A stretch of DNA of 64,000 bases from an uncultured Gammaproteobacteria bacterium (GTDB taxonomy: Bacteria > Patescibacteriota > Patescibacteriia > Patescibacteriales > GWC2-42-12). The notes under the pieces were generated by a model. It did no database searches and had not been told where the DNA came from. It saw only the letters and a program-made list of their open reading frames with translations. Positions 1 through 61,774 of this stretch are shown here, one piece after another. The stretch spans positions 27,103 to 91,102 of the forward strand of contig CAZHZE010000001.1 in NCBI GenBank assembly GCA_964537265.1. Reading direction: 5' to 3'. The position numbers and the translations under genes are program-made. Each line of letters starts with the position of its first letter. Within the stretch, counting starts at the first letter, position 1.

Positions 1-2384
1 TGCAAGGCACGGCCGAAGTAGCCATGATTTTAGAACGCGCCAAAAAAGAAGCTGATAGAATCGGCGACGAATATATTTCTACCGAACATTTATTTTTATC
101 AATAATCGGCGTAAAAACAAAAGCTCAAGAAATTTTAATTAACGCCGGAGTTGAGTATGCTGAAGTTTTAAAAATTTTAGCAAAATTGCGCGGCTCGCAA
201 ACCATTACCGACCCGGAACCAGAATCAAAATTCAGAGTTTTAGAAAAATACGCCATTAATTTAACCGAGCTAGCGCGCCAGGAAAAACTTGATCCGGTTA
301 TCGGCCGTGATGAAGAGATTAGGCGCATTATGCAAGTCTTATCCAGACGCACAAAAAATAATCCAGTTTTAATCGGCGAAGCCGGCACTGGTAAAACAGC
401 GATCATTGAAGGCTTAGCGCAACGCATTGTAGCCGGTGATGTGCCGGAAACTTTAAAAGGCAAAGAATTGATTTCTTTAGACTTAGGCGCTTTAGTTGCT
501 GGTTCAAAATTTAGGGGCGAATTTGAAGACCGTTTAAAAGCCGTTCTAAAGGAAATAAAAGCCCAGGGCGGCAATATCATACTCTTTATTGACGAATTGC
601 ACACCTTAGTGGGCGCAGGCGCTTCTGAAGGCTCTATGGACGCTTCTAATATGTTAAAGCCGGCTTTGGCGCGCGGCGAATTAAAAGCCGTGGGCGCTAC
701 TACTACCCGTGAATACCAAAAATATATTGAAAAAGACGCGGCGCTAGAAAGGCGTTTTCAGCCGATTTATGTTTCTGAACCTTCGATCGAAGATACAATT
801 GCAATCTTACGCGGCATAAAAGAAAAATATGAAGTTCATCACGGCGTCCGAATTACTGATGACGCTTTAATCTCCGCCGCAAAATTATCTTCACGCTATA
901 TTACCGACAGATTTCTACCGGATAAAGCCGTAGATTTAGTTGATGAAGCAACTTCGGCTTTACGCATGGAAATAGACTCTTCGCCTGAAGAATTAGATAC
1001 TTTAAAAAGAGATATAAAACGTTTAGAAATTGAAAAAGCTGGTTTAAATAAAGAAAATAAACAAAACTCTAAACTTAAAGATATAAATAAAAAATTAGCT
1101 CAGCTAAAAGAAAAAGCTAACCAAATAGAACTTCATTGGCATAATGAAAAAAATGTTATTGCAAAAATAAGGCAATCTAAAAAACAAATTGATGAATTAA
1201 AAATTCAAGCCGAAATTATTGAACGCCGGGGCGATGATTTAACTCAGGTAGCGGAAATATTATATTCAAAAATCCCGGCGTTAGAGCAGGAAGTAAAAAA
1301 ACAAGAAACTGAACTCGTGAAAATACAAAGCGCCGGACAAAGAATTTTGAAAGAAGAAGTTGATGAAGAAGATATCGCTAAAGTAGTCGCCCGCTGGACC
1401 GGCATCCCGGTAGCTAAAATGCTTGAATCGGAAATAAAAAAATTAGCTAAAGCCGAAGAAGTTTTAAATAAACGCGTCATCGGCCAAGACGAAGCTATCA
1501 AATCAGTCGCTAACGCAATTAGGCGTTCGCGAGCCGGCATTAGCGAAGAGAAAAAACCCATCGGCTCTTTTATGTTCGTCGGCCCGACCGGCGTAGGTAA
1601 AACCGAACTGGCTAAAGCCATCGCCGAATTTATGTTTAACGACGAAAACGCTTTAGTAAGATTAGATATGAGTGAATTTATGGAAAAGCATTCGGTGGCA
1701 AAAATAATCGGCTCCCCTCCTGGCTATGTCGGACATGATGAAGGAGGACAATTAACCGATAAAATTAGGCGCCGACCATATAGCGTTGTCTTATTTGATG
1801 AAATAGAAAAAGCCCACCCCGAAGTCTTTAATATATTACTGCAAATTTTAGACGACGGCCGATTAACCGATTCAAAGGGCCGCTCGGTCAACTTCAAAAA
1901 TTCTATTATTATCATGACTTCTAATTTAGGCAATGAAGTTATTAAAGAATATTCTATCGGTTTTACCGATACGACCGACATAAAACAAGCCGCTACCTTG
2001 CGTAATGATGAAATGAAAGAAAAAATTGATCGGATTTTAAAAGATAATTTTAAGCTGGAATTTTTAAACCGTATTGATGAAATTGTAATATTTAAGAGCT
2101 TGAATAAAGATGTTTTATCGGAAATCGTTGATTTAGAATTAGCTAAGGTAGAAAAAAGATTAAAAAACAAAGAAATTAATCTTAAGATCGGCCTGAAAGT
2201 TAAAAAAATGCTAGCGGAAAAAGGTTATGATACGACTTACGGCGCCCGCCCGCTAAAACGCATTATTCAGAATGTAATTTTAGATGAACTGGCCATGGAA
2301 ATAATCGAAGGCAAAATTAAACAGGGCGATAAAGTAGAAATTAATCTTGGCATAAAAGACAAAATTTTAATGACCATAAAATAA
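1..2384 (+). CDS. clpB: ClpB-type Hsp100 disaggregase, 5'-truncated by the window edge
   Basis: The frame of ORF 24..2384 stays open back to position 3. Two AAA+ modules are present ([16 protein letters not shown] and [19 protein letters not shown]), separated by a long K/E-rich coiled-coil middle domain, with a C-terminal GARPLKR motif. Confidence 0.9.
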
Positions 2385-2431
2385 ACTCATACACTTATTC
2401 ATAAGTGTGCGGGAAATTCAGAATAAAAAGA

Positions 2432-2462
2432 AGCACCCTTTTTAAAAACAGGGTGCTTTTTT
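2432..2462. terminator. Intrinsic terminator hairpin between convergent clpB and ORF 2486..3154
   Basis: Stem AGCACCCT / AGGGTGCT, with an A-run upstream and a T-run downstream, so it can act in both directions. Confidence 0.6.
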
Positions 2463-2485
2463 GTTAATCATAAGTCCGATTTCCG

Positions 2486-3154
2486 CTAAGCAGGCTGGGG
2501 TATAAAATGGCCTCCGCGGATAGTTTTTCTTTTTCCCAGAAATTTTTTAATTCGCCGACCTGCGTCACGACGGGCATTTTTTATTTCACGCATACTTTTG
2601 CCGGCACGTTCAGCCTTTTTGGTTTTAACGAAAACATCGTTTCTCGTTGAGCCATGGAACCTTGGCTTGATAATAAAAGCATTGGGTTGCGCCGGCTCGG
2701 CAGGAAATAAATGAGGACAGCAAGGGCGATAATAATTTGCAATATCTTCCCGGTTTTTTAAAAGTTCCTTGCCTTCATCTTCTTCTTCACCGCGAAAAAA
2801 TATTGGCGCGTCCAGGCTGGGAATAATTGTTTCCTCTTTCCCCCGGTTGTCAATCATTGCGATAATGGCATCTTCCGATGATACAAAAGCGACGGAAGCA
2901 ATATCTAAAGGCGACATTACGCAAGATAAAATACTAACCGAGGGTATGACGCCACCTCCGGTTATGATTGCAACCAACTTCTCCTCGTCAGGAACGCGAA
3001 TCTTGCCGGCGCAATGTTTGAATTCTTCCTGAACCGATTGCGGCCAATTTTCTATGCCTAAAGCATTATGCAGCGGCATGATTTGCGCTTTTGTTAAATT
3101 TAAAGGAGCTACAACTTTCTTACCGCCTAAAAAAGAATCAGACCCCTTCTTCAT
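2486..3154 (-). CDS. Hypothetical protein with a strongly basic C-terminal tail
   Basis: 222-aa ORF with an SD-like GGGGGA 8 nt upstream of the ATG. No family recognised. The C-terminus is K/R-rich (KTKKAERAGKSMREIKNARRDAGRRIKKFLGKRK). Confidence 0.55.
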   Translation of the reverse strand: MKKGSDSFLGGKKVVAPLNLTKAQIMPLHNALGIENWPQSVQEEFKHCAGKIRVPDEEKLVAIITGGGVIPSVSILSCVMSPLDIASVAFVSSEDAIIAMIDNRGKEETIIPSLDAPIFFRGEEEDEGKELLKNREDIANYYRPCCPHLFPAEPAQPNAFIIKPRFHGSTRNDVFVKTKKAERAGKSMREIKNARRDAGRRIKKFLGKRKTIRGGHFIPQPA

Positions 3155-3328
3155 TATTAAAATCCCCCTTTCAAAAATTTATGAAATAACATTAACATAA
3201 TTCATAAAAAAAATCAATATACATCTTATATATTAAACTAATATTAGCAAAGTTATTTTTTGTAATTTGCCCAGAGCCTTTTCGTATACTATAATATATA
3301 ATATAACTCACAATTAAGCATTATAAAT

Positions 3329-4798
3329 ATGGCTAAAACAAAGCTATTATTATTATTTTTCTGTTTTTCTTTAGTTTTTGTATTTACTATTAGTGCGGCT
3401 AAGGCCGAAGGTTTTGATCCTAATAATATTATTAGCGATTTAGAAATTTTGGATTATACTTCCATGGGCTTAAATGAAATCCAAACATTCTTACAAAATA
3501 AAGGCAGTTATTTAGCTACCTATTCCTGCCCTGACGCTTACGGCATGATCAGAAAAGCTTCGGAAATAATTTACAATGCGGCGGCTAATAATTTTGACTG
3601 CGACGGCGCTGTTTTAAGCGATAATCCGACTATTGAAGAAAGACAAGCTAAATGCAAAAAAATAACTATCAGCCCGAAATTTCTTTTGGTGCTTTTGCAA
3701 AAAGAGCAAAGTTTAATTGAAAGAAGCACAACTCCGACTCAAAGAAGCCTAGATTGGGCGACCGGTTATGGTTGTCCTGATTCTGGCGGTTGTAATTCAC
3801 GCTGGCAAGGTTTTGGCAAACAAGTTAATTCAGCCGCTTTGCAATTCAGAGATTATATTGATAATCCGCAATATTATACTTACAAAGCCGGCAACACTTA
3901 TACTTTTACCAATACTGACGCCGAGCCTATGACCGTTACGCCGGCTAATCAAGCCACAGCCGCGCTTTATAATTACACGCCGCATGTTTATAACGGCAAT
4001 TATAATTTTTATAAAATCTGGCAACGCTGGTTCACAAAAATTTATCCCGACGGCTCGCTTTTGCAAGCTAGCGGAGAAGCTGGAGTCTGGCTATTGCAAA
4101 ATGGTTTAATTCGTCCATTTTTATCTAAATCAGCTTTGGTCTCTCGCTTTGACATAAATAAAATTATCATCGTAAATAAATCCGATTTGGATAAATATGA
4201 AAAAGGCACGCCGATTAAATTCGCTCAATATTCTTTAGTAAAATCTCCGCGCGGCACGATTTTCTTAATCGTTGATGATAAAAAACGCGGCTTCACTTCT
4301 ATGGAAGCTTTCAGAAAAATGGGCTTTAACCCCGAAGAAGTCGTTAGCGCCGCCTGGGAAGATATAAATTATTATGCCGACGGTCCGAATATTACCGCTA
4401 CCTCTACTTATCCGACCGGCGCTTTGCTGCAAAATAATAAAACCGGTGGAATTTATTATGTAATTGATGGCATCAAATATCCGCTAATAGATAAAATTTT
4501 CTTAACTACTAAATTTAAAAGTAAAAAAATCATAGCTGTAACTCCGGCGGAATTGGATGGATATGAAACAGCCAAACCTTATCTATTCGGCGACGGCGAA
4601 TTGCTTAAAACAAAAGATTCTCCTTATACTTATGTAATTTCCGGCGGAAAAAAACTTTTAATAACCTCGGATAAAGTCTTTACTAGTTTAGGTTATAAAA
4701 TCGAAAATGTTATAATCGTGCCTTCAAGCATTTTGTATTTATATGAAGCCGGCACTCCTTTAACCGAAGAATTATTGGTTAATAATAGTACTAATTAA
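3329..4798 (+). CDS. Secreted protein of unknown function, possibly cell-wall associated
   Basis: 489-aa ORF with an N-terminal signal peptide (LLLLFFCFSLVFVFTISAAKA). No catalytic motif recognised with confidence. Confidence 0.7.
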   Translation: MAKTKLLLLFFCFSLVFVFTISAAKAEGFDPNNIISDLEILDYTSMGLNEIQTFLQNKGSYLATYSCPDAYGMIRKASEIIYNAAANNFDCDGAVLSDNPTIEERQAKCKKITISPKFLLVLLQKEQSLIERSTTPTQRSLDWATGYGCPDSGGCNSRWQGFGKQVNSAALQFRDYIDNPQYYTYKAGNTYTFTNTDAEPMTVTPANQATAALYNYTPHVYNGNYNFYKIWQRWFTKIYPDGSLLQASGEAGVWLLQNGLIRPFLSKSALVSRFDINKIIIVNKSDLDKYEKGTPIKFAQYSLVKSPRGTIFLIVDDKKRGFTSMEAFRKMGFNPEEVVSAAWEDINYYADGPNITATSTYPTGALLQNNKTGGIYYVIDGIKYPLIDKIFLTTKFKSKKIIAVTPAELDGYETAKPYLFGDGELLKTKDSPYTYVISGGKKLLITSDKVFTSLGYKIENVIIVPSSILYLYEAGTPLTEELLVNNSTN

Positions 4799-7491: not shown

Positions 7492-9591
7492 TTATTTTTT
7501 ATCATCAACATTTCTTACCTTCGGCACCTGCCAGTAATTAAGCATATATTCAGCCAATTCTCCGAATAACGGCGCGGCCGAACTTTCCGCCCATTCGACA
7601 TCGCGCGGCTGATCAATTCTTACGAGCATGACAAATTTAGGATCATCGGCCGGAGCAAAGCCGGCGAATGAACCTATGTGAGCGCCAGCTTGATAACCGC
7701 CTTTTTTGTCCGGCACTTGCGCCGTGCCCGTCTTACCGGCTACATAATAACCTTTAACGCCGGCTTTTTTACCATGCCCATTCTCTACTACATTAACCAT
7801 CATGCCGCCTAAAAGCGTAGCAGCTTTTTCCGAAATTATTCTACCGATTACAGTCGGCTGTGTTTCAACTTTTGTTCCATCAGGATTAACTATTTCTTTA
7901 ACAATATAAGGTTTCATCATAACTCCGTTATTAGCTAAAGCTAAAAATGCTGAAACCATCTGAATAGGAGTAACCGCTATGCCCTGCCCGAATGAAGCCG
8001 TGGCGGCATAAAGTTCGCCGACCGAATTTTTATTTAAATTTTTTATATCCCCCTTGCTCTCGCCTTCTAATTCAATGCCGGTCTTTTCCCCAAAGCCGAA
8101 TTTTTTTACATAATCAGCGAACAAATTCGGCCCGATCGACCGCATAGCAAAAATTGCGCCGGTGTTTAAAGATTTTTCTAAAACCTCGGTCATGGTTTGC
8201 ACGCCGTTAGATTTATGATCGGAATTTTCTATTTTATATTTAGCGATTATAACCTGGCCGGTATCTTCATAAGTTGTTTGCGGAGTTACTTTTTCCTGGT
8301 CTAAAGCCATGGCCATGGTTAAAACTTTAAAAATAGAACCCGGCTCGTATTGGGAAAAAATCGCCGGATTAGTAAAAATTTTTATATCCTTAACATCTTT
8401 ATAACTATTACCATCATAATCAGGATTAGAACACATGGCTAAAACCGCCCCGGTTTTAGGCTCTAAAATTATTACGCTACCGCCATCGGCTCCATGCCTA
8501 GCCACCGCTTCGTTTAATTTCTGGCAGGCCGTAAATTGGATGGAACGATCTATAGTTAAAATTAAATCGCTGCCGTCGTTAGCTTTATTATATTCGCGGT
8601 CATTAATAATTATCGGCTTGCCCCTAGCATCTCTTTCAACTTTTATGGAGCCGGCTGAACCGGTTAATTCTTGATTAAAAAATTCTTCCAAACCGTATCG
8701 GCCCTTTTGATCATCGCCAACATAACCAACAAAGCCTAAAATATTGGAACCGATATTTTTTTCCGGATAAAAACGAAATGAACTTTCGGAAAAACCGATG
8801 CCGTCTATTTTTAATTCTTTTTTAATAGTTTCTTTTTTTTCCCTGTCATAATATGGAAATAGGATAGTGCCGGCGTCTATTTCCAAATCTTCGATTTTTA
8901 AAGCGTCGGCCGGATCGCTTAAACCTAAATAAAATTTCTTTAAAATTTCTTCATCAACTTTCTGCTCTAACGGCTCATAAACATCGCCGGGTTTATTAAG
9001 CCTCTCTAAATAAGCTTCAACGGCCTGTTTTTTTCTTAATTCAATTTCAGCTTCGCGTTTAATTTGCCTTAACTCTTGAAAAGTTTTATCGGCTAAAAGC
9101 GCTTGATGCGCGGCGATAACTTCAGCTTCTTTAATTTTATAGGCTTCATCTTTAACATCGCCCAAAACCTTTAATTTAGCTTTTAAACTTTCTTCATCTT
9201 CTTTTTTAAATATTTCTTCAACCTCTTTTTCTGTTTTTTCTTTTTTAAAAGTTATATAAAGCTGCTCGCCTATTTTATTAGCATCTTTTATATCTTTCGG
9301 CACGGCATAAAGCAAAGCAAAATCTTTATTGGTGGCTACCGGGTAAAGTTTATTGTCAGCGCTTTTTATGTCATTTTGCAAAAAAATCCGGCCACGAACC
9401 GGATTGATTAAATTATAAATTTGGTGCTGATCGGCGGCTAGCGTAGAATATAAATCATAATTAAAAATCTGCAAACTGATTAATTTATAAACAACTGCTC
9501 CGGCCAATAAAAAAATAATCGCGATTACTAGATTAATGCGACTATTATTTATTTTTTCGCTATTGCCCTGTCTTTTTTTCCAAAACGACAT
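7492..9591 (-). CDS. ftsI: Class B penicillin-binding protein (FtsI-like transpeptidase) with a long charged insertion
   Basis: N-terminal TM segment and transpeptidase motifs (SIFK = SxxK, SDH, KTGTA). It lies downstream of mraZ-rsmH-ftsL. A K/E-rich segment of about 150 aa sits in the N-terminal module. Confidence 0.85.
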   Translation of the reverse strand: MSFWKKRQGNSEKINNSRINLVIAIIFLLAGAVVYKLISLQIFNYDLYSTLAADQHQIYNLINPVRGRIFLQNDIKSADNKLYPVATNKDFALLYAVPKDIKDANKIGEQLYITFKKEKTEKEVEEIFKKEDEESLKAKLKVLGDVKDEAYKIKEAEVIAAHQALLADKTFQELRQIKREAEIELRKKQAVEAYLERLNKPGDVYEPLEQKVDEEILKKFYLGLSDPADALKIEDLEIDAGTILFPYYDREKKETIKKELKIDGIGFSESSFRFYPEKNIGSNILGFVGYVGDDQKGRYGLEEFFNQELTGSAGSIKVERDARGKPIIINDREYNKANDGSDLILTIDRSIQFTACQKLNEAVARHGADGGSVIILEPKTGAVLAMCSNPDYDGNSYKDVKDIKIFTNPAIFSQYEPGSIFKVLTMAMALDQEKVTPQTTYEDTGQVIIAKYKIENSDHKSNGVQTMTEVLEKSLNTGAIFAMRSIGPNLFADYVKKFGFGEKTGIELEGESKGDIKNLNKNSVGELYAATASFGQGIAVTPIQMVSAFLALANNGVMMKPYIVKEIVNPDGTKVETQPTVIGRIISEKAATLLGGMMVNVVENGHGKKAGVKGYYVAGKTGTAQVPDKKGGYQAGAHIGSFAGFAPADDPKFVMLVRIDQPRDVEWAESSAAPLFGELAEYMLNYWQVPKVRNVDDKK

Positions 9592-9610
9592 AAAATATCT
9601 ATTAGAATCT

Positions 9611-9660
9611 ATTAAAAAAATTAATGGCCGTAGAGTTTCGCTCGCTATTAAAAATTTTTT
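9611..9660 (-). promoter_or_regulatory. AT-stem hairpin with a conserved 21-nt loop in the ftsI leader (copy 1)
   Basis: The minus strand reads TTTAAT-AGCGAGCGAAACTCTACGGCC-ATTAAT. The loop at 9626..9646 matches 39674..39694 at 19 of 21 positions, in the same orientation relative to the downstream gene. Confidence 0.45.
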
Positions 9661-9672
9661 CTAAAAAAGTTT

Positions 9673-9999
9673 TTACTTTTTAGCCACAGCTTCAATTCCT
9701 GAATTTAAATAACTTACTTCGCCAACCGCCACCATTTTTAGCTCGCCGATTTTATCTTTTATATTTGCATAAGAGCTAGAAGTTAAAGCGCTAAGCTCAA
9801 GTTTATTATTAACTTCGACTAATTTACTTTTCTGCTGTTTAAGATCAGACAAAGCAAAACCTTTTATGGATAAATCATTGACGCCAGCCACATAATAAAC
9901 CGATAAAATAATTATAGCAAAAAATATGGCTTTGTTTAAATTTTTCAGATTAAAAACCTTTTTAATCAATGGCAATTTTGTATTTTTTGTTTTTTCCAT
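9673..9999 (-). CDS. ftsL: FtsL-like bitopic cell-division protein
   Basis: 108 aa with a single TM segment (AIFFAIIILSVYYVAGV) followed by a coiled-coil-like region. It sits between rsmH and ftsI. Confidence 0.55.
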   Translation of the reverse strand: MEKTKNTKLPLIKKVFNLKNLNKAIFFAIIILSVYYVAGVNDLSIKGFALSDLKQQKSKLVEVNNKLELSALTSSSYANIKDKIGELKMVAVGEVSYLNSGIEAVAKK

Positions 10000-11672: not shown

Positions 11673-11792
11673 AATTAAATTTTGTTTCGTTAGGCACGAA
11701 ACTGGCCATTCTCGCCGGCGTTATTATCTTGGCCGGCTTTATTTTTATTTTTGTTTTTTTAAAAAAGCTTAGGATAAAGGATTTTACCGTTT

Positions 11793-11856
11793 CACCACTA
11801 TTCCCCACCGTTCACCATTATACTATAATTATATACCACTTAATGCCATTTGTCAA
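11793..11856 (-). promoter_or_regulatory. mraZ promoter with three MraZ-box direct repeats
   Basis: The minus strand carries TTGACA (11851..11856), a 17-nt spacer and TATAAT (11828..11833). Downstream follow TGGTG, TGGGG and TGGTG at exact 10-bp spacing (11813-17, 11803-07, 11793-97). Confidence 0.65.
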
Positions 11857-11991
11857 TGATAAGCTACCACTAAAATTACAGCTAAAATTAAAGTAAAAAT
11901 AATAAAAAATACCCACCGCCTGACCGATGGATATTTTATGAAAAATATTATGAAATTTTTTTTATTTAGTTATCAACAACTTTATCCACAT

Positions 11992-31029: not shown

Positions 31030-31266
31030 TTATATTCTATTTTCTAAAAACTTTCTACCAAAACCTGTTTTAAAATATTTTTCTCTATTTAGGGCTTTAA
31101 ATTTATTATTACATGCCTCATAATATGCTAGCTTTAACGGCCTTCTGTCTCTAGTAGAAACTACCAAACCATTCTGATGTTCTAAAAATCTTTTTCTTAA
31201 ATCATGAGTAAACCCAATATATAATTTTTTGTCTTTTATGCTTTCTAATATATAAGTGTAATACAT
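31030..31266 (-). CDS. Small GIY-YIG nuclease family protein
   Basis: MYYTYILESIKDKKLYIGFTHDLRKRFLEHQNG contains the GIY-YIG motifs YxYIL and YIGxT. I chose the internal ATG at 31266; the upstream part of the 125-aa ORF looks non-coding. Confidence 0.8.
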   Translation of the reverse strand: MYYTYILESIKDKKLYIGFTHDLRKRFLEHQNGLVVSTRDRRPLKLAYYEACNNKFKALNREKYFKTGFGRKFLENRI

Positions 31267-31389
31267 GCTCTTAATACGCCAACTGAGCCCCGCCCGCCAT
31301 GCAAGCCAGCTTGCTGGCGTTGCGGGCGCGGTAACGGCGCGCAAATAAAAAACCCGCGCCAACGGATATGTTAATAATAAAATAACATA
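31267..31389 (-). other. GC-rich nested-hairpin block with a tRNA D-arm-like segment upstream of the GIY-YIG gene
   Basis: On the minus strand a 10-bp hairpin (GGATATGTTA / TAACATATCC) comes first. Next, CCGCGCCCGC pairs with GCGGGCGGGG around GCCAGC-AA-GCTGGC. Then GCTCAGTTGGC..GAGC matches the tRNA-Lys D-arm (11-mer plus GAGC, with a 7-nt insertion). Confidence 0.4.
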
Positions 31390-31485: not shown

Positions 31486-32883
31486 ATGACTGACAAAAAA
31501 GATTCTATATCAAAATTACCACCGCAAAATATGGAGGCTGAGGCCTCTCTTTTAGGCTGTTTAATGATTGACAAAGACGCAATTTTTAAAATTGCCGATA
31601 CTTTAAAGCCGGAAGATTTTTATAAAGACAGCCATGGCATTATTTATGAAAATATGCGCGAATTATATGCGCGCCATGAACCGATTGATATTTTAACCCT
31701 TACTTCAAAATTAGAAGAAAAAAATAAGCTTGAAGTTGTAGGCGGACGCACTTATATAGCCGAATTGGCCAATACCGTAGCCACTTCGGCCCATGTAGTC
31801 CATTATTCTAATATTATACAACGCAAAGCCACTCTAAGACGCTTATTATCAGCTTCGGCCGATATTACTGAATTAGGCTATCGTGAAGATGAAGAAATAG
31901 AAAAATTGTTAGATGAAGCCGAGCAAAAATTATTCGGCGTTTCGCAAAAATATTTAAAAAATGTTTTTCAGCCGATTGATAACTTATTAACTGAAGCTTT
32001 TGACAGAATTGATGAGCTGCATAAACAAAGCGGAAAATTGCGCGGACTAGCTACAGGTTTTAACGATCTTGATAATTTATTGGCCGGTTTGCAAAAATCA
32101 GATTTAGTAATTTTAGCCGCTAGACCGAGCGTGGGCAAAACTTCTTTAGCTCTAGATATAGCCAGACAATCAGCTTTATTAAGCAAAATCCCTGTCGGTA
32201 TATTTTCTTTAGAAATGAGTAAAGAGCAATTAGTCGACCGCATGCTTTGCGCCCAGGCCAACGTAAGCTTATGGCGTATGCGCACCGGGAAATTATCCGA
32301 CAAAGAGGAAGATAATGATTTTTCACGCATCGGCGAAGCTATGGGAAAATTATCAGAAGCGCCTATTTATATTGATGATTCAGCCAGCTGCAATATTATG
32401 GAAATAAGAACTAAAGCGCGCCGCTTACAGGTTGAAAAAGGTTTAGGCTTATTAATCATCGACTATTTGCAATTAATGGAAGGACGTTCTAGCCACGGAG
32501 ATAACCGCGTTCAAGAAGTTTCAGAAATCACTCGCGGCCTTAAATCAATCGCCCGTGAATTAAATATACCCGTTTTAGCTTTATCGCAATTATCGCGAGC
32601 AGTAGAAATGGGTGGCGCTCAAGCCATACCGAGATTAGCGCATTTAAGAGAATCAGGATCCATTGAACAAGATGCTGATGTGGTTATGTTTATTTATCGT
32701 AAAGCCGCCGACCGCCACTATAATTACGACGATTTATCCGAAACCGATAAACATACAGGGGAAATTCATATTGCTAAACATAGAAACGGCCCGACCGGTA
32801 AGGTAGAATTATTTTTTGATGAAAATACTGTAAGCTTTAAAAATTTAGATAAAACCGGCCAAGAAGCGCCGCCTGAATACTAA
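31486..32883 (+). CDS. dnaB: Replicative DNA helicase DnaB
   Basis: The N-terminal motif PPQNMEAEASLLGCLM, Walker A ARPSVGKTS, LLIIDYLQLM and the C-terminal motif GSIEQDADVVMFIYR. Confidence 0.95.
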   Translation: MTDKKDSISKLPPQNMEAEASLLGCLMIDKDAIFKIADTLKPEDFYKDSHGIIYENMRELYARHEPIDILTLTSKLEEKNKLEVVGGRTYIAELANTVATSAHVVHYSNIIQRKATLRRLLSASADITELGYREDEEIEKLLDEAEQKLFGVSQKYLKNVFQPIDNLLTEAFDRIDELHKQSGKLRGLATGFNDLDNLLAGLQKSDLVILAARPSVGKTSLALDIARQSALLSKIPVGIFSLEMSKEQLVDRMLCAQANVSLWRMRTGKLSDKEEDNDFSRIGEAMGKLSEAPIYIDDSASCNIMEIRTKARRLQVEKGLGLLIIDYLQLMEGRSSHGDNRVQEVSEITRGLKSIARELNIPVLALSQLSRAVEMGGAQAIPRLAHLRESGSIEQDADVVMFIYRKAADRHYNYDDLSETDKHTGEIHIAKHRNGPTGKVELFFDENTVSFKNLDKTGQEAPPEY

Positions 32884-39065: not shown

Positions 39066-39446
39066 TTATAAAAATTGAAAAATTATTTCGTAAATAACAA
39101 ATATTGGGAATAAAACCCAAAAAGAAATAATTACAACAACAACAATCAGCCAACATATCATAATTAAACTTCTGACAATAATCTGCACCAAGCGCACAAG
39201 AAAACTTATCAGCATACCGGCAAAATCATATTGCGCATACATTGGACGAAAAATATTTTTTACCCAAACTAAAAGCGCCAAAGACTTTTCTTTGTCGCTT
39301 AAAAAATGCCCCATACTAATAAGCAAATCTAACAAGCCTCGGCCATACCACCAAAGCGGAAAATAAATAACATCGCGGATAAGTTCAATTATTATTTGGA
39401 TGCTATAAAAGACAAAACTATTGTTCATAAAATTAACAATTATCAA
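39066..39446 (-). CDS. Small polytopic membrane protein, apparently co-transcribed with the Hsp100 paralog
   Basis: 126 aa with 3-4 hydrophobic segments. Its stop lies 9 nt upstream of the start of ORF 36303..39056. Confidence 0.55.
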   Translation of the reverse strand: MIIVNFMNNSFVFYSIQIIIELIRDVIYFPLWWYGRGLLDLLISMGHFLSDKEKSLALLVWVKNIFRPMYAQYDFAGMLISFLVRLVQIIVRSLIMICWLIVVVVIISFWVLFPIFVIYEIIFQFL

Positions 39447-39496
39447 TTACGAATTTAAAATTTATAATTGATAATTGCAAATTAATAATTGATTTT

Positions 39497-39526
39497 ATTA
39501 TACCACATTCTTTCTGATTTTACCAA
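39497..39526 (-). promoter_or_regulatory. Candidate promoter of the membrane-protein/Hsp100 operon
   Basis: The minus strand carries TTGGTA, an 18-nt spacer and TGGTATAAT (extended -10). Confidence 0.45.
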
Positions 39527-39530
39527 ACGC

Positions 39531-39559
39531 TTGACACTAATTTAATTATTGTGTAATAT
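39531..39559 (+). promoter_or_regulatory. Candidate promoter of the secE-nusG-rplKA region
   Basis: TTGACA, a 17-nt spacer and TAATAT. A small GCCC-GACA-GGGC hairpin with a T-run follows at 39579..39598. Confidence 0.45.
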
Positions 39560-39658
39560 ATAATTATCAATAAATACCGCCCGACAGGGCTGTTTTTTAA
39601 AATTCTTTAAAAACTTTTTCAAAAAAGTTTTTAATATTTTCAAAAAATATAATGTATT

Positions 39659-39709
39659 AAGCTAAAATTTAATAGCGAGTAAAACTCTACGGCCATTAAA
39701 TTTTAGCTT
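39659..39709 (+). promoter_or_regulatory. Hairpin with a perfect 15-bp AT-rich stem and a conserved 21-nt loop in the secE leader (copy 2)
   Basis: AAGCTAAAATTTAAT-[AGCGAGTAAAACTCTACGGCC]-ATTAAATTTTAGCTT, ending 14 nt before the secE ATG. The loop matches the ftsI-leader copy at 19 of 21 positions. Confidence 0.5.
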
Positions 39710-39722
39710 AATAAATGTAAAT

Positions 39723-39911
39723 ATGAGCAAAATAATCAATTACATCAAAGCCTCGATTGAAGAAATGAAAAAAGTTACTTGGCCGACAAAAAAAGAAACC
39801 TACAACTATACCGTATTAGTAATTTTTATCAGTTTAGGCGTAGCTTTATTTTTAGGAGTTTTAGATTTAATCTTTAATAAAGGCTTAGAATATTTAATTA
39901 CCAATATTTAA
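39723..39911 (+). CDS. secE: Preprotein translocase subunit SecE
   Basis: 62 aa with EEMKKVTWPTKKE followed by a single TM segment. It lies immediately upstream of nusG. Confidence 0.8.
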   Translation: MSKIINYIKASIEEMKKVTWPTKKETYNYTVLVIFISLGVALFLGVLDLIFNKGLEYLITNI

Positions 39912-41731: not shown

Positions 41732-41750
41732 ATTTAAACATCAATTAATA

Positions 41751-41781
41751 TAAAAACAGAGGTTTATAAAACCTCTGTTTT
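41751..41781 (+). terminator. Terminator after rplA
   Basis: Stem CAGAGGTTT / AAACCTCTG followed by TTTTT. Confidence 0.65.
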
Positions 41782-41791
41782 TATATTTAAC

Positions 41792-61713: not shown

Positions 61714-61774
61714 ATTTTAACTTTTAATGGCCGAAAAATCAATGGCTATAATTACTATTAAATCACTTATTTTT

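Follow-up and report, generated by a model that had tools for sequence, protein, structure and literature searches.

ERIC (IRU) elements of enterobacteria and Correia (CREE) elements of Neisseria are transcribed repeats of ~100-150 bp that can create sites for RNase III or RNase E and so alter the stability of a cistron. RNase III signals of the T7 R1.1 type, and the stabiliser in the ompA leader, leave hairpin-protected ends and can activate translation downstream, and in eukaryotes the 5' terminal oligopyrimidine (5'TOP) element is a short unstructured pyrimidine tract that is read by LARP1. We analysed a 64,000-nt stretch of DNA from an uncultured bacterium of the Patescibacteria (the window), in which a preliminary description had picked out a 21-nt motif ahead of both ftsI and secE. 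As read from its sequence, this motif is the conserved core of an intergenic module of ~125 nt, larger than first noted. The module appears to be a multi-copy structured leader RNA cassette that acts in cis, and makes a promising candidate for a novel RNA family, in a phylum that has received little study.

Like ERIC and Correia elements, the module occurs in many copies, lies in transcribed intergenic regions, encodes a long RNA hairpin and occupies different sites in related genomes. Unlike them, it lacks terminal inverted repeats, no target duplication is visible, its orientation is nearly fixed and its codon junctions are fixed, and it contains a covarying, conserved and asymmetric core; there is no sequence similarity, and the phylum is a different one. 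The hairpin resembles T7 RNase III signals in being a long coaxial helix with an asymmetric internal loop, placed between cistrons or at the 5' end of an mRNA, and with 25 pairs, an A·C mismatch and a 4-nt 3' bulge it has the geometry of such a signal (a coaxial helix of at least ~20 bp). It differs from them in a core sequence far more conserved than RNase III requires and in the presence of a second hairpin and a conserved linker, and its cleavage is only predicted. The resemblance to 5'TOP is a functional analogy only, in that the mRNAs of elongation factors and ribosomal proteins are marked by a common 5'-leader element; the module, in contrast, is a bacterial hairpin of 60 nt with a putative reader protein.

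Ribosomal-protein leaders such as L10_leader (RF00557) are, like the module, structured elements in the 5' untranslated region (5'-UTR) of ribosomal-protein genes. Each such leader, however, is specific to its operon and mimics an rRNA site, whereas the module hairpin is found at more than 40 unrelated genes, and before rplJ it coexists with, and lies downstream of, a real L10 leader. REP and BIME sequences are imperfect palindromes of ~35 nt with a 5' GTAG, found mostly at the 3' ends of genes and often in arrays; the module, in contrast, carries a 60-nt hairpin in a 125-nt unit, and is single at each site and placed before start codons. The nut sites of lambda and of rrn operons share with it an A/U-rich, boxA-like string followed by a hairpin in the leader RNA of highly expressed operons (PMC8632103), and differ in loop type, in copies per operon, in a boxA that is not sequestered in a palindrome and in proximity to the AUG. 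The module fails the defining features of miniature inverted-repeat transposable elements (MITEs), REPs, terminators, sigma-70 promoters, nut sites and operon-specific ribosomal-protein leaders.

Database searches agreed with the earlier impression that no known family is involved, as the module fell below every gathering threshold of Rfam 15. A gathering-threshold scan of the window returned three tRNAs only and nothing at the motif, a scan of 39560-39740 at E <= 10 returned only microRNA-type hairpin matches far below threshold, and at eight module-bearing loci nothing was found at the module. A limited literature search on regulatory motifs of Patescibacteria, of the candidate phyla radiation (CPR) and of Falkowbacteria yielded no description of it. 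The loop pattern had no match among the viral contigs of IMG/VR, from which we take it that the module is not a phage element.

Architecture and covariation of the module

The pattern AGCGAG(NN)AAACTCTACGGCC (searched as AGCGAGNNAAACTCTACGGCC) matched the window exactly twice, at 9626-9646 on the reverse strand and at 39674-39694 on the forward strand. No further match was found in the window at up to three mismatches, and the chance expectation was 0 (100 shuffles). The two cores are unlike only at NN (CG vs TA), as the 19 of 21 identical positions reported earlier imply. The forward copy precedes the gene for SecE (39723-39911; Pfam, 3.2e-20), with the NusG gene next downstream, and the reverse copy precedes that for the penicillin-binding protein transpeptidase FtsI (7492-9591; Pfam), ahead of which lie, in order, MraZ, RsmH and a 108-aa open reading frame (ORF) in the FtsL position.

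The secE module consists of four parts (Table 1). Its core had been described as the loop of a perfect 15-bp stem ending 14 nt before the ATG. The core does sit on a stem, but this measures 19 bp (the two arms in Table 1) and ends 9 nt before the ATG, and both alignment and folding indicate that the 21 nt are internally paired, in the order A, G-C, GAGU/ACUC helix with AAA triloop, UACG bulge, G-C, C. The folding energy of this hairpin was -23.3 kcal/mol (z = -5.95), and our covariance model R1 scored it at 90 bits (E = 3.6e-17). The upstream A/T palindrome, which we call boxA, has arms of 10-13 bp around a variable middle of 2-3 nt, is confined in the window to the two module sites, and in the secE copy folded as RNA at -8.2 kcal/mol. 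A small GCCC/GGGC hairpin with a T-run (39577-39598) lies between the promoter-like site of secE and the module.

Table 1. Coordinates of the module, its parts and related features in the window and in relatives
Feature	Position	Strand	Description and evidence
secE module, part 1: boxA	39605..39632	+	A/T palindrome CTTTAAAAACTTTTT-c-AAAAAAGTTTTT; inverted repeat I2, 100% complementary
secE module, part 2: linker	39633..39654	+	A/U-rich AATATTTTCAAAAAATATAATG with 'TATAAn' box; conserved
secE module, part 3: hairpin	39655..39713	+	59 nt; fold, R1 score, family covariation
Hairpin, 5' arm	39655-39673	+	
Hairpin, structured core	39674-39694	+	
Hairpin, 3' arm	39695-39713	+	
secE module, part 4: tail and start codon	39714..39725	+	9-nt A/U tail AATGTAAAT without Shine-Dalgarno, then start codon at 39723
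secE module, upstream context	39531..39598	+	TTGACA-N17-TAATAT promoter-like site (39531-39559); promoter scan, 10/12 matches
secE promoter, GCCC/GGGC hairpin and T-run in relatives	window 39531-39598; L022 ~960-1005(-); L069 1034-1098		present with or without module
ftsI copy: shortened module	9608..9672	-	R1 40.5 bits, E = 4e-6
murC leader	61724..61761	-	TTAAT-AG...CGGCC-ATTAA flanks around unrelated 21-nt interior
GC-palindrome insertions	L003 7060-7135; L111 9895-9915; L115 7165-7225, 7270-7288; L035, L054, L076 hairpin tips		

The ftsI copy is shorter. The left half of boxA abuts the stop codon of the FtsL-position gene (9673-9675) and is joined to TTTTTAAT, the core and ATTAATTTTTTTAAT, with the ftsI ATG at 9591-9589; the copy lacks the linker, the TATAA box and most of the 5' arm. 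TTAAT and ATTAA do pair at its flanks, as had been proposed, but the remaining A/U run is interrupted, and the copy folds no better than shuffled sequence (-7.3 kcal/mol, z = 0.27). In a relative whose FtsI is 82% identical (L111), we found a full module (68.2 bits), which shares the CG loop variant and stops 6 nt short of the ftsI ATG. The window copy aligns to it with a loss of ~55 nt that comprises the right arm of boxA, the mini-hairpin, the linker and most of the 5' arm. By this alignment the ftsI copy arose through a deletion that spared the core, rather than as an independent flank solution for one fold as first suggested.

For the third copy tentatively reported at murC, only the flanks hold. 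The pattern TTAATAG-N10-40-CGGCCATTAA matched the window exactly three times (ftsI, secE and murC; 0 expected), but the murC interior differs, R1 gave no match there (E > 10), and the leader folded no better than shuffled sequence (z = +1.32). A terminator-like hairpin and AAAAAATAAGTGA precede the element, which is at best a decayed relic, to judge by these flanks.

We collected further copies in two ways. A scan with the 19 specified bases against one genome per species gave 17 loci, none of them the window locus. Fifteen lay in AT-rich metagenome-assembled genomes (MAGs) of Patescibacteria type, eight in one MAG and three in another. The remaining two (L010 and L011, in genomes of 66% and 57% GC) had the 19 bases without the flanks and were dropped as chance matches. 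The ~125-nt architecture was common to all 15 AT-rich loci and reads, 5' to 3', boxA (CTTTRAAAACTTTTT-nnn-AAAAAGTTTT), YAATAYTTTY, the linker AAAAAATATAAnG, the hairpin, a short A/T tail and the ATG. The conserved A/U linker, AAAAAAUAUAAnG, is single-stranded and lies between the boxA hairpin and the hairpin of 59-62 nt; the sixth base of its TATAAn box is unconstrained (T 37, G 33, C 21, A 16). We then scanned metagenomes with a 31-nt pattern taken from the boxA/linker region alone, which avoids circularity, and obtained 92 stretches from many samples. Among 107 matches to the linker pattern that were examined, ~100 were followed by the hairpin, two had no hairpin, two were truncated, and the rest ran off contig ends. 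Conversely, both upstream boxes were present at 102 of 108 hairpins, the exceptions being contig edges or slight variants. Protein names of close homologues place the hosts in Candidatus Falkowbacteria and related Patescibacteria of the Parcubacteria group.

Some copies carry extra CCC..GGG mini-hairpins, each followed by ATAAAC, ahead of the AAAAAATATAAnG linker, and the distance from boxA to the linker varies by up to ~60 nt through insertions. The inserted sequences are tiny GC palindromes (CCCGCCTAAGCGGG, ACCCTAAAGGGT, GCCCAAAGGGC), which recur with a maximum of three in succession, are usually followed by ATAAAC, and are confined to the 5' side of the linker. The hairpin apex can hold a related palindrome, CCTGCCCGTACCGTTCGGGCGGG. 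These palindromes look like a second family of tiny repeats (Table 1).

Covariation supports the fold. We aligned 74 distinct hairpins, gathered through the upstream linker without use of the loop sequence (alignment A2), and tested a structure with a 19-bp outer stem, an A·C mismatch, two G-C pairs, a 4-bp helix with a 3-nt loop, and a 4-nt 3' bulge. A total of 95.8% of the alignment cells paired, compared to 31-53% with slid partners, and compensatory changes were seen at 16 of the 25 pairs; none of 500 shuffles reached the observed values. Selection on the fold had been argued earlier from the changed flanks of the secE and ftsI copies. That argument fails for these two copies alone, but across the family the covariation in its favour is strong.

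The hairpin family has an A/U stem of 17-19 bp, a total length of 59-62 nt, an ARA triloop and a 3' UACG bulge. Variants of the apical helix covary (GAGT/ACTC, GGGC/GCCC, GAGC/GCTC, GGAC/GTCC and GAAC/GTTC), as does the pair closing the triloop (C-G 51, U-A 20). Within the core, positions A21, G22, C23, C34, G39 and C40 are invariant, U35, A36 and C41 are conserved at >97%, and C37 and G38 at ~90%. The outermost pair (columns 2-60) is weak, and the helix effectively starts at the A of GTAT. Thermodynamic folding reproduced the structure for the GGGC variant and for copies with an apical GC hairpin insertion, an addition that the apex thus tolerates. In the collected loci, R1 scored sense matches at 49-92 bits and their antisense mirrors at 30-47 bits. 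Pairing of the linker with the tail or the AUG (inverted repeat I4) was rejected, since its duplex energy was -1.68, compared to -1.70 with permuted tails. A K-turn was dropped by eye as G·A pairs are absent, and so was a rolling-circle nick site, CTTGATA, which covaries as part of the stem.

Placement, downstream genes and turnover

The module is closely fitted between genes. In ~85 of 96 distinct modules an ORF starts 5-35 nt past the hairpin, most commonly after 7-12 nt, and in ~80% of modules the hairpin and the ATG are separated by 5-14 nt of A/U-rich spacer without a Shine-Dalgarno sequence. This tight spacing may reflect genome compaction. On the other side, boxA begins no more than 7 nt past the upstream stop codon in 63 of 75 co-directional cases, and the module therefore fills the whole intergenic space. 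The preliminary description would have been refuted by an absence of further copies and of conservation in relatives, or by copies scattered irrespective of gene orientation; we found many further copies, conserved in relatives, and ~92 of the 96 distinct modules are co-oriented with the downstream gene. This bias and the covariation argue, as it had proposed, for an element of 5' leaders that is structured in the sense strand and acts in cis. Divergent intergenic regions hold 2 of 77 modules (both at secE) against ~25% expected from the gene order of the window, a statistic that is only indicative because module copies are not independent. Inverted-in-place modules occur between co-directional genes at L007 (4556-4664, forward strand) and at L073, L086 and L104. 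The one in L007 exactly fills the infA-rpmJ spacer and is antisense into infA; in other genomes a module stands in the sense direction before rpmJ.

A specific link to envelope and secretion genes, which the two window copies had suggested, did not survive the wider collection, as the same element precedes dozens of unrelated and for the most part highly expressed genes, such as those for ribosomal proteins, EF-Tu, RpoB, AtpA and pilin. Pfam identified 20 of the 81 distinct downstream proteins, 14 of them ribosomal (L36, S11, L24, L10, L25, S7, L23, L20, L6, S5, S18, L5, L2 and L31) and six others (EF-Tu, RpoB, SSB, NDK, AtpA and a pilin). By eye and without Pfam, we further recognised NusG, enolase, adenylate kinase, AtpF, PilT, sugar epimerases and glycosyltransferases. 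In ribosomal-protein clusters (L061, L075), a second module lies 1.6-2.6 kb from the first. None of 19 tRNA genes had a module, nor did the sole rRNA operon found (23S, L046); the genes served all code for proteins.

A Shine-Dalgarno sequence is present at only 16 of the 64 genes of the window. At many of the 64 a TATAAT-like hexamer stands exactly 6 nt before the ATG (31486, and on the reverse strand 5898, 12369 and 21438), for example TTGCTT-N17-TATTAT-N6-ATG at 31486. The sequence suggests that leaderless mRNAs are widespread in the window.

Comparison of close relatives revealed a turnover of modules. In the secE region of three genomes, including the window (NusG 96-98% identical), the same TTGACA-N17-TAATAT promoter is followed by the same small hairpin and T-run (Table 1). 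In the window and in L069 the module lies between that hairpin and the secE ATG; L022 has none before secE and one between secE and nusG. The modules of the window and L069 are 82% identical, and the coding sequences of secE and nusG 82% and 88%, respectively. The promoter, hairpin and T-run may form a short attenuator or a 5' hairpin leader, and a similar arrangement is found ahead of the atp operon in L013, L020 and L023. At ftsI the gap in L110, L112 and L113 (48, 23 and 8 nt) contains no module. No module precedes murC in three relatives, where the upstream gene is a different one; modules in these genomes lie before mraY (L114, 84.9 bits) and before murG (L115, 43.9 bits), the latter with three mini-hairpins and an apex insertion. 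Close relatives thus differ in which genes carry the module, which would move among intergenic sites over evolutionary time.

Probable transcription of the module and rival explanations

Several observations indicate that the module is itself transcribed. In two diverged genomes it lies between an L10 leader (50.2 and 50.1 bits, gathering threshold 44) and the ATG of rplJ, and in L016 a TTGACA-N16-TATTAT promoter lies upstream of the leader. If the L10 leader regulates rplJ, transcription must pass through the module. The starts of the atp operon and of secE also have a conserved canonical promoter upstream of the module. Nor does the module resemble an intrinsic terminator, a G+C-rich stem with a U tract behind it, as no terminator-like site was predicted in 39440-39740 or 9560-9760 and the sequence after the long hairpin is A-rich. 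The clear promoters of the clade are of the canonical TTGACA-N17-TATAAT type (mraZ, 23S rRNA and secE), as seen at the 23S operon of L046. Within the module, no -35 hexamer was found 16-18 nt upstream of TATAAn, and the sole match in a promoter scan (TTCAAA-N18-TAAAAT, 9/12) is lost in class-B copies. We conclude from these sequence contexts that the module is probably a transcribed leader or intercistronic RNA and not chiefly a promoter, to which a weak internal promoter may be added. Sigma-54 and sigma-28 promoters (wrong spacing), an RfaH ops element (GGCCGTAG on the template strand), a promoter for a single-subunit RNA polymerase, and a leader peptide, whose ATG hinges on the free N of TATAAn, were each dropped by eye.

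With anatomy, covariation, strand and position bias and the transcription context observed as above, we favour, at a probability of roughly 0.6, a multi-copy cassette of ~125 nt that is transcribed in mRNA and acts in cis, post-transcriptionally, on the next gene downstream. Its role would likely be in 5'-end definition, stability or translation. A specific mechanism of recognition, cutting and a standard 5' end we put forward tentatively, at somewhat short of an even chance. In this mechanism a protein or RNase would recognise the invariant asymmetric core, and cleavage of the transcript would fall within either the A/U linker or the long stem. A hairpin would remain at the 3' end of the upstream fragment, and the downstream mRNA would begin with or just after a stable hairpin, followed by a standard short A/U leader. 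As a natural 5'-UTR insulator, the cassette would fix the stability and the Shine-Dalgarno-independent translation of highly expressed genes regardless of upstream sequence. The order hairpin-linker-hairpin, with GC hairpins only 5' of the linker, fits a processing or insulation cassette. The hairpin may alternatively serve as a translational operator. A further reading, in which it is the operator of a regulon-wide post-transcriptional control and one dedicated RNA-binding protein or endoribonuclease reads the core and sets both the stability and the Shine-Dalgarno-independent translation of dozens of mRNAs (for ribosomal proteins, EF-Tu, RNA polymerase, ATP synthase, pili and envelope enzymes), seems to us improbable. 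If true, it would be a bacterial counterpart of the eukaryotic 5'TOP, and copying the cassette before new genes would rewire the regulon quickly in these minimal genomes.

A number of points weigh against the post-transcriptional cassette. Since ~10% of modules are 50-118 nt away from the ATG, the tight spacing is not obligatory, and 4 of the 96 modules are inverted in place. Stem mismatches (G·U 8 vs A·C 16) do not favour a sense RNA, although this wobble test is uninformative. The idea that the module substitutes for a Shine-Dalgarno sequence was rejected, as orthologues without the module also lack one. The transcript ends, cleavage and any binding partner are inferred from sequence. Finally, in L039 and L049 boxA and the linker stand straight before the ATG (9-30 nt) and the hairpin is absent, and 18 of the 96 modules directly follow a terminator-like GC hairpin with a T-run, which is easier to explain if the module carries its own promoter.

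These last two observations belong to the case for a portable or mobile promoter, in which boxA would be an UP element or a terminator, AAAAAATATAAn or AAATAT the -10 box, and the hairpin a 5' stabiliser with the start of transcription at its foot. The A-tract and TATAA box of the module also suit such a promoter. BoxA resembles the UP-element consensus, the start predicted with AAATAT as -10 falls close to the first firmly paired base, and the pattern of presence and absence resembles promoter turnover. Against this stand the missing -35, the randomness of what would be T(-7) of TATAAn in a clade that has canonical promoters, and insertions of 20-60 nt between boxA and the TATAAn box. At rplJ, a constitutive promoter in the module would bypass both the L10 leader and its promoter, and the module is depleted in divergent regions and unused at rRNA and tRNA genes. 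We therefore regard a promoter as the chief function of the module as unlikely. Far less likely still is nut-like antitermination, in which the 5' CUUU(A/G)A(A/C)AAC would be a boxA for NusB/NusE, the hairpin a boxB, and the two together would make RNA polymerase resist termination over long, highly expressed operons. The 5' end of the module (CCTTTGAAAACTT, CTTTAAAAACTT or CTTTAACAACTT) does resemble rrn boxA sequences, GCTCTTTAACAA in E. coli and GTTCTTTGAAAACT in a Firmicute or Mollicute, and operons for ribosomal proteins, rpoB, atp, pili and sugar metabolism are typical clients of antitermination. The string GTTCTTTGAAAACT is also a PCR primer of Mollicutes used in mycoplasma detection (PMC3019172). 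The order of the parts also matches lambda nut, in which a linear boxA lies 5' of the boxB hairpin (PMC8632103). Against this reading, the boxA-like string here is mostly buried in the palindrome. A covarying Y-R pair closes the apical ARA triloop, which is not a GNRA-like pentaloop, several modules occur within 1-3 kb of a single ribosomal-protein cluster (L061, L075) and not one per operon, and the only rRNA leader found in the clade (L046, 23S) carries CATTAACAATC and not the CTTTRAMAAC of the module. The tight spacing to the AUG would also be left unexplained.

We give similarly little credence to a selfish miniature repeat of the MITE, ERIC or Correia kind, tolerated without a function for the host. 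Its multi-copy nature and size of ~125 bp, sites whose occupancy differs among close relatives (secE vs nusG, ftsI, mraY, murG), occasional inverted copies, decayed copies in the window and nested small GC palindromes are all in keeping with such a repeat. Yet ~92 of 96 copies share one orientation with tight junctions to stop and start codons, the ends are unrelated and the only palindromes are two internal ones, and no clear target-site duplication was seen between the filled (window, L069) and empty (L022) secE sites, whose flanks are short and A/T-rich. Compensatory changes in both helices, an invariant core, an orthologous module as conserved as the adjoining coding sequence (82% vs 82-88%) and enrichment before the most highly expressed genes also argue against it. 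The least probable of the alternatives is a DNA operator through which a transcription factor would control envelope and secretion genes together, a possibility raised in the preliminary description. The palindromes of boxA and of the hairpin arms could be dimer sites, and the window copies do precede secE and ftsI, but the arms covary without a fixed half-site sequence, the core is asymmetric and strand-specific, and the targets belong mostly to the translation machinery. The covariation and the gene list appear to have largely refuted this explanation.

Neighbouring features and significance

Some features of the window and its relatives are recorded here in their own right. Directly after rplA, at 41747-41787, a perfect A/U-rich hairpin (AUAUAAAAACAGAGGUUU...AAACCUCUGUUUUUAUAU) is likely a bidirectional terminator; its R1 score of 25.7 bits reflects a generic hairpin only. 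On the reverse strand at 11780-11860, a canonical TTGACA-N17-TATAAT promoter upstream of mraZ is followed by repeated GGTGAA/GTGGGGAA units, which resemble MraZ-box repeats of the sort present in other bacteria. A 78-aa ORF for a GIY-YIG nuclease (31030-31300, reverse strand; Pfam 1.4e-15) lies directly upstream of tRNA-Lys, and a GC-rich stretch beside it at ~31270-31295 resembles the 5' half of a tRNA (GGGGCTCAGTTGGCG); Rfam recognised no intron and no second tRNA at this site. L111 also has a small GIY-YIG ORF between mraZ and rsmH, and L113 has one at its end. In L046, a group I intron (RF00028, 77 bits) at 1210-1442 on the reverse strand overlaps the last ~130 nt of the 23S gene (1312-4218).

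The Patescibacteria (CPR) account for much of bacterial diversity and are mostly uncultured, and the control of their gene expression is almost unstudied. A single leader, backed by covariation and common to genes for translation, RNA polymerase, ATP synthase, pili and the cell wall, would give a handle on global expression control in this group. As only about a quarter of the window genes have a Shine-Dalgarno sequence, the module may also bear on the translation of such mRNAs. With ~100 instances at hand, and a model already calibrated, it could readily be proposed as a new RNA family. It could mark highly expressed genes in the annotation of MAGs and could be a natural, portable 5'-UTR insulator part, and its filled and empty sites among close relatives are a natural experiment on how a regulatory cassette spreads.

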